64,000 bases of DNA. Origin: Bacillota bacterium (GTDB lineage: Bacteria; Bacillota; Clostridia; Christensenellales; CAG-138). The DNA lies in contig JAEWCL010000015.1 of NCBI GenBank assembly GCA_023390655.1, positions 48,946 through 112,945 of the forward strand. The letters run 5' to 3'. Positions within the stretch are counted from its first letter, which is position 1. Each line of letters opens with the position of its first letter. Positions 39,347-41,404 of the stretch are shown here, piece after piece. A program made the translations under genes and the position numbers. Under the pieces are notes generated by a model that did not search any database, was not told the origin of the DNA, and saw only the letters and a list, made by a program, of their open reading frames with translations.

Positions 39347-41404
39347 ATGGAACGTATTGTGCAAGCTATAGGCCTGGCCATTGTGCTCGGCTTTATCGTT
39401 TTTGGCATTGACGATTTCATCTGGGATATATGCAATATTGTTCGCAACATCAGGCGCGTGGAAAATGACCGCCTGCCGATCGAACGTCTTGACGCCGTAC
39501 CGCCGAAATTGCTGGCGGTAATGGTTGCGGCATGGCATGAAGACAATGTGCTTGAAGCGGTCATAGACAATATGATCTCGTCTGTTCAGTACCCGCGAAC
39601 CATGTATCATGTCTTTATCGGCGTATATCCAAACGATGCGCCGACCATTGACGTTGCAAAAAAATTGGCGCAAACGTATGACAATGTGCACATGGTCATA
39701 AACGCCCGTCCTGGTCCTACCTGCAAGGCGGACAATATTAACAATATTATCCGGTACATCAAACAATTTGAAAGCGAACGCAAATGGCGGTTTCACTCGG
39801 TTACCATACATGATTCCGAGGATGTGGTGCACCCCTATGAACTCAAGCTTACGAACTATCTGCTTGATTTCTATGACGTGATGCAGTTTCCCGTGATTCC
39901 GCTGCAGAAAATGCCCACCTTGGCAAACATGTTTCAAAGCATGACGATCGGCACGTATGCCGACGAATTTGCGGAAAACCATTTTCGGGGGATGGGAACC
40001 CGGGAGGCAATGTCTGCCGTGGTGCCATCGGCAGGAACGGGGTTCGTCCTATCACATGCAATCCTTGACCATTTCGGAAGCGAGCCGCTTTGCCCTGAGG
40101 ACAGTTTGACCGAGGATTATAAGTTATCGCTGATTTTGGCTGAGCAAGGATTTCAGACGCATTTTGTTCTGGAAAAAGTGCCCCGCCTGATGGACAACCA
40201 TACCGTGCGATGGGATTTCGTCGCAACAAGAAGCTTTTTCCCTGATACATTCCAGACGGCCGTCCGGCAAAAAACACGCTGGATATACGGCATCACCATG
40301 CAGTCGGCCAAAATCTCCGAGGTTTTCAAACCCGGCGCAATGGGGTTTACAGGCAGATACTCGCTTTATAAGGATTTGAAGGCCAAGTTGAGCAACCTGA
40401 TGGTACTGCCCGGCTACCTCGCCTTTGTCTATTTTGTTTTGTCGTTGTTTGTTTCGCTCCCCTATATGTATCCCCGGAATTCACTGGCGTACGGGCTCTG
40501 CGTATTTCTGACGTTTATGATGGTTTTCCGCCAAATCATGCGGGCTGTAGCGATTGCGAACTTCTACGGCTTTAAGAGCATGGCCATCGCATGCCTGTTT
40601 CCCCCGCTGATGCCTGTTCGCCTGGTTTGGGGCAATATTATCAACATGGTGGCGACCCTTCAGGCGTGGAAACTCTTTTTTCTTGGAACGGGAACCAAGA
40701 AGAAAAAGAAAAAGGTTGCATGGAACAAGACGGACCATACGTTTTTGCAGAAGCAGACGCTGCGCCGCTACTACCGGAATATTGGAGATATTTTGCTGGA
40801 GAAGCAGTATATTGATGTCAGCACGTTAAGCAGCGCGCTCCGCCAGAGCAAGGCGGAAGGATTGCGTATTGGCGAAGTGCTTTTGCGGCAAGGCCTCGTG
40901 TCGGAAGAGCAGGTGGCGGAAGCCATCTCAAATGTGCATCATAAAATTTTTATCGGCAAGCCTTCTGTTTTTTCCGGCAGCCTTTCGGATGCGTTTGATA
41001 AAGAGCTGCTTGAAAGATTGCGCATCTGTCCCATTCTAAAAACGAAAGCAGGCTATGTCTTCGCTGTAACCGAATCCTCCGATATCGACGGTATTCCCGC
41101 GCTGCTCGGCATTCGCGCAGAAAGCTGCCGCTTTGTTTACACGACCCAGACTGGCGTTCTTAATGCCCTCCGAAACCAAAGCGATGGCGAGACTTCTGCG
41201 CATAAGGCAATTCAGAAATACTTCGATATTGGCTCGATTACATGGGAACAAGCCGTGCTGGCAATGGATAAGTATGATTTCTCACCGGATATACTAGCTT
41301 ACATGGGGCTTAAAGATGATGGCTACGCTGCCGCCAAACCCGCCGTTGCACTTGCACAGGGCGGTAACGCTTCGGCAGTGCGGCGCCATGATCTGGGTAT
41401 CTGA
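39347..41404 (+). CDS. NfrB-like processive family-2 glycosyltransferase with C-terminal MshEN (T2SSE_N-like) domain
   Basis: N-terminal TM helix, then a GT2 core with HDSEDVVHP, SLTEDYKL (TED) and RQKTRW (QxxRW). Three more TM helices follow, then a KKKKKK linker and tandem MshEN-like motifs (..IGDILLEKQYI.., RIGEVLLRQGLVSEEQVAEAISNV). ATG 39347 is preferred over GTG 39338 on RBS spacing. Confidence 0.8.
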   Translation: MERIVQAIGLAIVLGFIVFGIDDFIWDICNIVRNIRRVENDRLPIERLDAVPPKLLAVMVAAWHEDNVLEAVIDNMISSVQYPRTMYHVFIGVYPNDAPTIDVAKKLAQTYDNVHMVINARPGPTCKADNINNIIRYIKQFESERKWRFHSVTIHDSEDVVHPYELKLTNYLLDFYDVMQFPVIPLQKMPTLANMFQSMTIGTYADEFAENHFRGMGTREAMSAVVPSAGTGFVLSHAILDHFGSEPLCPEDSLTEDYKLSLILAEQGFQTHFVLEKVPRLMDNHTVRWDFVATRSFFPDTFQTAVRQKTRWIYGITMQSAKISEVFKPGAMGFTGRYSLYKDLKAKLSNLMVLPGYLAFVYFVLSLFVSLPYMYPRNSLAYGLCVFLTFMMVFRQIMRAVAIANFYGFKSMAIACLFPPLMPVRLVWGNIINMVATLQAWKLFFLGTGTKKKKKKVAWNKTDHTFLQKQTLRRYYRNIGDILLEKQYIDVSTLSSALRQSKAEGLRIGEVLLRQGLVSEEQVAEAISNVHHKIFIGKPSVFSGSLSDAFDKELLERLRICPILKTKAGYVFAVTESSDIDGIPALLGIRAESCRFVYTTQTGVLNALRNQSDGETSAHKAIQKYFDIGSITWEQAVLAMDKYDFSPDILAYMGLKDDGYAAAKPAVALAQGGNASAVRRHDLGI

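Follow-up and report, generated by a model that had tools for sequence, protein, structure and literature searches.

Does the C-terminal tail of a family 2 glycosyltransferase (GT2) from a Clostridia-like Bacillota organism form a receptor for cyclic di-GMP (c-di-GMP), and does c-di-GMP binding there switch polymer synthesis on? The question is raised by a stretch of 64,000 nucleotides of contig JAEWCL010000015.1 (assembly GCA_023390655.1; hereafter the window), in which an earlier note had found, on the tail of a synthase, two tandem 24-residue motifs like those of the MshEN domain and had read them as one good and one weak c-di-GMP half-site. The sequences, coordinates and tail position that it gave are exact: 40778-40936 (+) translates to NIGDILLEKQYIDVSTLSSALRQS / KAEGL / RIGEVLLRQGLVSEEQVAEAISNV, that is, residues 481-533 in a 24+5+24 layout with the canonical 5-residue spacer, in a protein whose GT2 domain lies at residues 56-318 (Pfam Glyco_tranf_2_3, E 3e-45). 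Residue numbers throughout are those of the 688-aa frame, unless the 685-aa model is named. From what could be observed directly (the motif, the domain fold, the homology, the GT2 catalytic motifs and the gene linkage), the tail is almost certainly a genuine MshEN domain, and the synthase a member of the NfrB family. With a probability of about 0.7, its 53 motif residues make up a four-helix c-di-GMP-binding bundle (MshEN_N), part of a complete MshEN domain on the cytoplasmic C-terminus of a GT2 that is processive and embedded in the membrane, in a monoderm (Clostridia-type) NfrB homologue, and the tail binds c-di-GMP and switches the synthase on.

We compared both copies with the strict consensus RLGxx(L/V/I)(L/V/I)xxG(L/V/I)(L/V/I)xxxxLxxxLxxQ. 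Copy II agrees exactly at 7 of the 11 specified positions; at three others L is conservatively changed to I/V, and position 24 holds V instead of Q. In copy I, the initial R is replaced by N (with R480 immediately ahead of it) and the G of position 10 by Q, and a Gln, Q503, stands one residue before position 24. These counts are as previously reported, and copy I has in addition a Y at position 11. The relaxed motif of Wang et al. (2016), [RKPN]hGxxhhxx[GAS]hhxxxxhxxxhxx[QNKRYWST] (PMC5013675), is missed at a single position by each half, copy I at position 10 (Q) and copy II at position 24 (V), and neither half gives a regex match, strict or relaxed. Could two amphipathic helix hairpins then resemble the motif by chance? 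These failures would fit, as would the finding that hydrophobic-rich membrane segments of the same protein reach 10/11 on a single half. The tandem as a whole, however, satisfies 20/22 relaxed-class positions, a value that no other site of the window reaches in any of its six frames (the runner-up has 17), and a score of ≥20 is expected only 0.003 times in residue-shuffled open reading frames (ORFs). Moreover, the 53-position NCBIfam hidden Markov model (HMM) NF053729 'c-di-GMP_motif' ('cyclic di-GMP-binding domain, MshE-related') matches residues 482-531 with 50.1 bits (cutoff 38, E 1.7e-13), and it matches 39/39 sampled relatives at E <= 0.001. Together with profile and fold matches to MshEN only and a collinear homology to NfrB, both described below, the HMM match and the tandem score effectively refute chance resemblance, to which we assign practically no weight.

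The fold of the tail was analysed next to its sequence. An AlphaFold2 (AF2) model of the last 221 residues (predicted local distance difference test, pLDDT, 83.8; predicted template modelling score, pTM, 0.75) has helices alpha1 at 482-488, alpha2 at 494-507, alpha3 at 511-517 and alpha4 at 523-533, followed by an alpha/beta subdomain, with pLDDT >90 for alpha1 and alpha2 of motif I. In a Foldseek search of the PDB with this model the top 20 matches were all MshEN/GSPII domains, headed by PilF-GSPIIB (8PKZ) and MshE (5HTL), both with bound c-di-GMP, at E ~1e-6 and target-normalised TM-scores of 0.72-0.77; the matches span 139-146 columns and include GSPII domains that are non-binding or dock PilZ (9g1w, 7lkn). 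The MshEN helical fold that the earlier note had expected for this segment is thus the one predicted. By sequence, the single tail gave weak PDB matches to PilF, MshE (5HTL) and PilB (E ~1e-3), and the 39-sequence family profile matched MshEN/GSPII chains only (PilF 1.8e-18, PilB 1.4e-13, MshE 9.7e-10), aligning over ~140 residues with the PilB N-domains 6olj, 5zfr and 3jc8.

The closest characterised relative indicates what such a domain may do on a synthase. BLASTP aligned the protein with NfrB of E. coli K-12 (EcNfrB) at 35% identity over residues 13-532 (E 1e-89), both motif regions included. Scores with the NCBIfam NfrB-type models PRK14716.1-3 (376.6 bits, cutoff 409) and PRK15489 (354.8 bits) were below the equivalog cutoffs. 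The corresponding segment of EcNfrB reads R-PLGQILLENQVITEEQLDTALRNR / VEGL / RLGGSMLMQGLISAEQLAQALAEQ. Cyclic di-GMP is bound by its MshEN domain with a Kd of 1.0 uM, and this binding is competed by c-di-GMP only; the mutants L490A, L490/537A and G491L were made, c-di-GMP binding is needed for function, and the coupling of polymer production to the c-di-GMP level was shown genetically (PMC8669469). The residues equivalent to those mutated are I482, G483 and I530 in the present protein.

Conservation was examined in 167 distinct clade sequences, on which all clade figures given here are based. The oddities of copy I proved to be typical of the clade: Arg at position -1 (R480; R488 in EcNfrB) is 98% conserved, position 1 is N in 62%, and position 10 is G in 37% and Q in 35%. 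Since the binding-competent EcNfrB, in addition, likewise has Arg at -1, a residue other than Arg at position 1 and Q for G at position 10, we dropped the distinction between a good and a weak half-site; the remainder of the earlier interpretation, a genuine MshEN-type module with c-di-GMP gating as its best-supported function, was upheld. In half-site I, the Arg that stacks on guanine is probably R480. The most conserved positions of the clade are G483 (97%), L486 (96%), L497 (95%), L501 (93%), G512 (94%) and L515 (97%), so that the ligand-contact positions G483, L497, L501, G512, L515 and R480 are among them; position 526 is L in 85%, and 63% of the members have R or K as the first residue behind motif I. 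The Arg of motif II is only 52% conserved.

Several results, besides the regex failures above, weigh against c-di-GMP binding and gating. The terminal Gln is missing from both halves (S504 and V533, the latter followed by H534-H535), and this is so across the clade, with S in 50% and A in 33% at position I-24, and V in 59% at position II-24, followed by Q/K/H and then H. The V of copy II had been noted correctly, but the loss in both halves, and clade-wide, had been underweighted. In MshE, the equivalent Q32 and Q61 make polar contacts (hydrogen bonds) to the ribose-phosphate of c-di-GMP (PMC5013675), and in PilF GSPII-A the His and Arg in place of the glutamines (H33, R62) are one reason for non-binding, regained binding having required that the glutamines be restored (PMC12002112). 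Alignment to the Pfam T2SSE_N/MshEN family (PF05157), proposed earlier as a check, gave no match for the synthase tail even at E <= 10, though 8/39 relatives match. The NfrB equivalog model PRK11234 (NF008411) was not reached either (324.7 bits, cutoff 1170). No GGDEF or HD-GYP gene was detected in the 64-kb window by phmmer, by regexes or by an ad hoc GGDEF HMM made from neighbouring genes in the related loci (EAL was not specifically searched), and there is no GGDEF gene in the 10 kb beyond each window end. No Rfam family, c-di-GMP riboswitch or other known RNA, reached its gathering score in the 780 bp upstream or in the whole window, where the scan gave two chance-level matches only at E <= 1. 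Finally, we found in the literature no experimental work on any member of the Gram-positive clade, no study of a Clostridial GT2-MshEN member and no NfrB structure.

The only GGDEF-related match in the window was a PucR-family regulator at 37-1647 (-) with a GGDEF_2 (GGDEF-like) domain, which was rejected, as it is not a diguanylate cyclase.

It is with the absence of both terminal glutamines in mind that confidence in c-di-GMP binding is held at the value given above. The tail might instead be a degenerate MshEN/GSPII fold that has lost c-di-GMP binding, like PilF GSPII-A, and serves the synthase structurally or for the docking of proteins, a partner protein for instance. The missing glutamines, with H534 after motif II recalling the substitutions in PilF, would be explained in this way, as would the poorly conserved Arg of motif II, the lack of a Pfam MshEN match, the absence of a cyclase gene within the ~84 kb examined, and the presence of 9g1w and 7lkn among the fold matches. 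Yet conservation is 93-98% for the hydrophobic triads, for Gly-3 of either motif and for R480, the c-di-GMP_motif HMM scores above its cutoff here and recognises every sampled relative, EcNfrB still binds at 1 uM in spite of its own deviations (P/N at position 1 and Q at 10; PMC8669469), and S at position 24 is permitted by the relaxed motif (PMC5013675). In more distant relatives (45-48% identity; loci L031/L006, L052, L063, L064, L067 and L072), moreover, a GGDEF gene adjoins that of the synthase even though their motif II is weaker still. These relatives likewise have neither the terminal glutamines nor the Arg of motif II, which suggests that the site in this clade tolerates the loss of both. 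Loss of binding therefore seems to us unlikely, if far from negligible.

A Gln-less site might also respond to a different nucleotide, for instance c-di-AMP, cGAMP or (p)ppGpp: its polar ribose-phosphate contacts differ from those of canonical MshEN, and c-di-AMP is widely used in Bacillota. But the hydrophobic clusters and Arg residues for guanine stacking are retained, the signalling neighbours of the relatives are GGDEF and not DAC genes, and binding to EcNfrB is competed by c-di-GMP only (PMC8669469), all of which makes a switch of ligand very improbable. The clade-wide loss of both motif glutamines offers, in any case, a natural test of which MshEN contacts are needed for binding.

A third hairpin resembling the motif, degenerate and without Gly at position 3, follows in the tail (Table 1). 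It satisfies 9/11 relaxed positions, and its block is conserved in the family consensus as G.I.WEQAVLA...DIL.YMGL; the third motif of EcNfrB, in contrast, is perfect (PLGKFLVTEGVISQETLDRVLTIQ, residues 691-714).

The remainder of the protein has the features of a processive GT2 synthase. In the family alignment, H158, D159, E161 and D162 of the DxD-type HDSED motif, T258, E259 and D260 of the TED motif, and Q311, R314 and W315 of the QxxRW motif are invariant, TED being counted among the NfrB signatures (PMC8669469). Hydrophobic segments lie at 3-32 (an N-terminal helix), 351-379 and 383-407. The full-length AF2 model (pLDDT 87.4, pTM 0.89) contains the long helices, with transmembrane segments between the GT domain and the C-terminal MshEN domain, and the solved folds nearest to it are BcsA cellulose synthase, hyaluronan synthases (HAS) and plant CesA. 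The linker from the last membrane helix to the MshEN domain holds a run of lysines (clade consensus KKxKK; pLDDT low at 449-454 of the 685-aa model) that is probably a membrane-proximal basic patch. Of the two possible starts, the ATG is likely the true one, given a GGAG 10 nt upstream and a 685-aa gene call on an identical metagenome contig.

We infer ligand binding, activation and polymer chemistry in the following manner. WecB, encoded at 43105-44229, would turn UDP-GlcNAc into UDP-ManNAc, from which the synthase would make a ManNAc-containing polymer and thread it through its own membrane channel; UDP-ManNAc was inferred as the NfrB substrate by Junkermeier and Hengge, partly from the nfrB-wecB linkage (PMC8669469). 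The synthase would be active only with one c-di-GMP clamped between the two helix hairpins, the guanines stacking on R480 and R510 as well as on the hydrophobic triads I482/L497/L501 and I511/V526/I530. Polymer output would thereby be tied to the c-di-GMP level of the cell, as in EcNfrB.

The genes that follow the synthase bear on this scheme. The product of the second, wecB/mnaA, is identified by TIGR00236 (472.9 bits, cutoff 210) and Pfam Epimerase_2 (E 2.9e-114), and is called at 374 aa on related and identical metagenome contigs, where the order synthase/GT39-like/wecB also recurs; 16/55 informative related loci have WecB no more than 10 kb from the synthase. The first gene codes for a GT39/PMT_2-like membrane protein that scores 24.3 bits with Pfam PMT_2, under the 26.1 cutoff, and has no PDB sequence match at E <= 1. 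Its 87 homologues in the database form a narrow family annotated 'glycosyltransferase family 39' or PMT_2, most with PF13231, and S111-D112, in the likely first outer loop, is nearly invariant. The gene is directly downstream of the synthase in 12 related genomes, namely those with a synthase ≥63% identical. A phmmer search of the window and of 79 related loci, with EcNfrA and EcYbcH as queries, gave no homologue of these NfrB partners at E <= 0.1, which is what one would expect where an outer membrane is lacking, and the GT39-like protein may stand in for them in monoderms.

One could go further and regard the Clostridia-type clade as a distinct monoderm version of the Nfr system, with a remodelled receptor and a GT-C (GT39-like) enzyme replacing NfrA/YbcH, a proposal we consider unlikely as a whole. 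The traits of the remodelled receptor may be the Arg at -1, the absence of terminal glutamines, the K/R after motif I and the (Q/K/H)-H after motif II, and its binding of c-di-GMP may then differ in mode, affinity or specificity; the ManNAc polymer might be transferred to the cell surface, or anchored there, by the GT39-like enzyme. If true, this would be a new route to a c-di-GMP-controlled wall glycopolymer, and a possible phage receptor, in Gram-positives.

In other clades of the family the gene directly 3' of the synthase varies (loci L025-L064 and others): 9 loci have WecB at this place, 5 a secreted protein of ~280 aa (e.g. L037:12167-12991), 3 a secreted protein of 570-590 aa (e.g. L050:6132-7841) and 2 a GGDEF protein. 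In the window, a LytR-CpsA-Psr (LCP) family gene is found at 50362-52017 (-), ~9 kb downstream of the cluster, and is present in L002 too. LCP enzymes join glycopolymers to peptidoglycan and ManNAc also occurs in teichoic-acid linkage units, and hence WecB could serve a second pathway.

Upstream, a hairpin with a T-run likely parts the sugar-utilisation operon from the synthase cluster. In the intergenic region, only a block of 64-76 nt just before the start is shared with relatives, namely L007 and L034, and the comparison gave no sign of a structured leader. A 179-bp stretch of this region (38716-38894) is found in L086 and lacking in L002-L004, which have a synthase 99% identical. A 12-nt inverted repeat, GCTGTACCCACA (38702-38713) / TGAGGGTACAGC (38898-38909), flanks the stretch, which could represent a small insertion element or the scar of a deletion. 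Elsewhere in the window, a 790-aa open frame at 19478-21850 (+) joins a LacI-type regulator (helix-turn-helix and Peripla_BP_1, 49-351) to SBP_bac_1 (414-693), and is either an unusual fusion or two genes without a stop between them.

Table 1. Features of the synthase, its MshEN tail and the adjoining genes, in window coordinates.
Feature	Position	Strand	Residues and remarks
Likely terminator of upstream sugar-utilisation operon, hairpin + T-run	38619..38651	+	inverted repeat I1, 14-nt arms, 93% complementary
Mechanical ORF of synthase	39338-41404	+	GTG start, 688 aa
NfrB-like processive GT2 synthase gene	39347..41404	+	685 aa from ATG 39347
HDSED, DxD-type nucleotide-sugar/metal motif of GT2 domain	39809..39823	+	residues 158-162
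TED catalytic motif	40109..40117	+	residues 258-260
QKTRW, QxxRW motif of processive GT2 synthases	40268..40282	+	residues 311-315
Lys run K454-K459, linker between last membrane helix and MshEN domain	40697..40714	+	six lysines, AAGAAGAAAAAGAAAAAG
Whole MshEN domain, N-terminal four-helix bundle + C-terminal alpha/beta subdomain	40769..41182	+	~residues 478-615
R480, Arg one residue ahead of motif I	40775..40777	+	
MshEN 24-residue motif I, NIGDILLEKQYIDVSTLSSALRQS	40778..40849	+	residues 481-504
Spacer KAEGL, 5 residues	40850..40864	+	residues 505-509
MshEN 24-residue motif II, RIGEVLLRQGLVSEEQVAEAISNV	40865..40936	+	residues 510-533
Third, degenerate motif-like hairpin, KAIQKYFDIGSITWEQAVLAMDKY	41204..41275	+	residues 623-646; no Gly at position 3
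GT39/PMT_2-like (GT-C type) polytopic membrane protein	41444..43024	+	526 aa; 40 bp after synthase
wecB/mnaA-type non-hydrolysing UDP-GlcNAc 2-epimerase	43105..44229	+	374 aa; two genes downstream of synthase, 81 bp after GT39-like gene

How widespread are such synthases? With a threshold of E <= 1e-10, 2133 proteins of the database were matched, many of them named 'phage adsorption protein NrfB', and relatives occur in at least 451 species-level genomes (one genome per species), the best species-representative match being 83%. Most are from Bacillota/Clostridia (Sporobacter termitidis, Ca. Pelethousia, Christensenellaceae, Oscillospiraceae), and others from Coprothermobacter, Atribacterota and Coriobacteriia. 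Wang et al. had included the GT2-MshEN architecture, with NFRB_ECOLI, in their 2016 supplement (PMC5013675), and the E. coli system was validated in 2021, when Gram-positive homologues were called rare (PMC8669469); NfrB-like GT2-MshEN synthases are, on the contrary, common in Clostridia and neighbouring phyla. Our analysis hence opens no new class of system, but it adds two variant traits, a site without the terminal glutamines and a GT39-like partner instead of NfrA/YbcH, and points to c-di-GMP as the probable regulatory input, and to UDP-ManNAc as the probable substrate, of an uncharacterised three-gene surface-polymer cluster of an uncultured saccharolytic Bacillota organism.

Among known systems, that of E. 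coli NfrB is the nearest in architecture. Both proteins have an N-terminal transmembrane helix, a GT2 domain with DxD, TED and QxxRW motifs, transmembrane helices and a C-terminal MshEN domain; both begin motif I with R-x-h-G, have a non-Arg position 1 after the Arg and a Q at position 10 (R-PLGQILLENQ in EcNfrB), and both are linked to a UDP-GlcNAc 2-epimerase (PMC8669469 for NfrB homologues). They differ in the spacer (5 residues here, 4 in EcNfrB), in position 24 of motif II (V533 here, Gln in EcNfrB) and in the third motif, as described. EcNfrB works with NfrA, YbcH, DgcJ and WecB to make the N4 glycan receptor (NGR) polysaccharide, whereas here a GT39-like membrane protein follows the synthase instead of the NfrA/YbcH partners, no diguanylate cyclase gene is adjacent, and the host is a Clostridia-like member of the Bacillota.

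MshE of Vibrio cholerae (MshEN, 5HTL) shares the tandem 24-residue motifs, the 5-residue spacer, and the four-helix bundle with its alpha/beta subdomain (Foldseek E 1e-6, target-normalised TM-score 0.72-0.74; profile E 9.7e-10) at ~20% identity; its domain is N-terminal to a secretion ATPase, unlike the present one, which is C-terminal to a GT2 synthase, has the Arg of motif I shifted by one residue and is missing the counterparts of Q32 and Q61. The GSPII-A/B/C domains of Thermus thermophilus PilF (8PDK, 8PKZ, 9G1W) provide the best structural matches and the best profile match (1.8e-18), but are linked to an ATPase, and GSPII-B and GSPII-C bind c-di-GMP while GSPII-A does not (PMC12002112). 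The logic proposed here, in which a C-terminal c-di-GMP receptor turns polymerisation on, is that of BcsA cellulose synthase and other c-di-GMP-activated synthases; BcsA is likewise a membrane-integrated processive GT2 (5ej1 and 4p00 being the nearest solved fold of the catalytic and membrane part, E ~1e-12 to 1e-10), but at only 12-14% identity, with UDP-glucose as substrate and with PilZ, rather than MshEN, as receptor.

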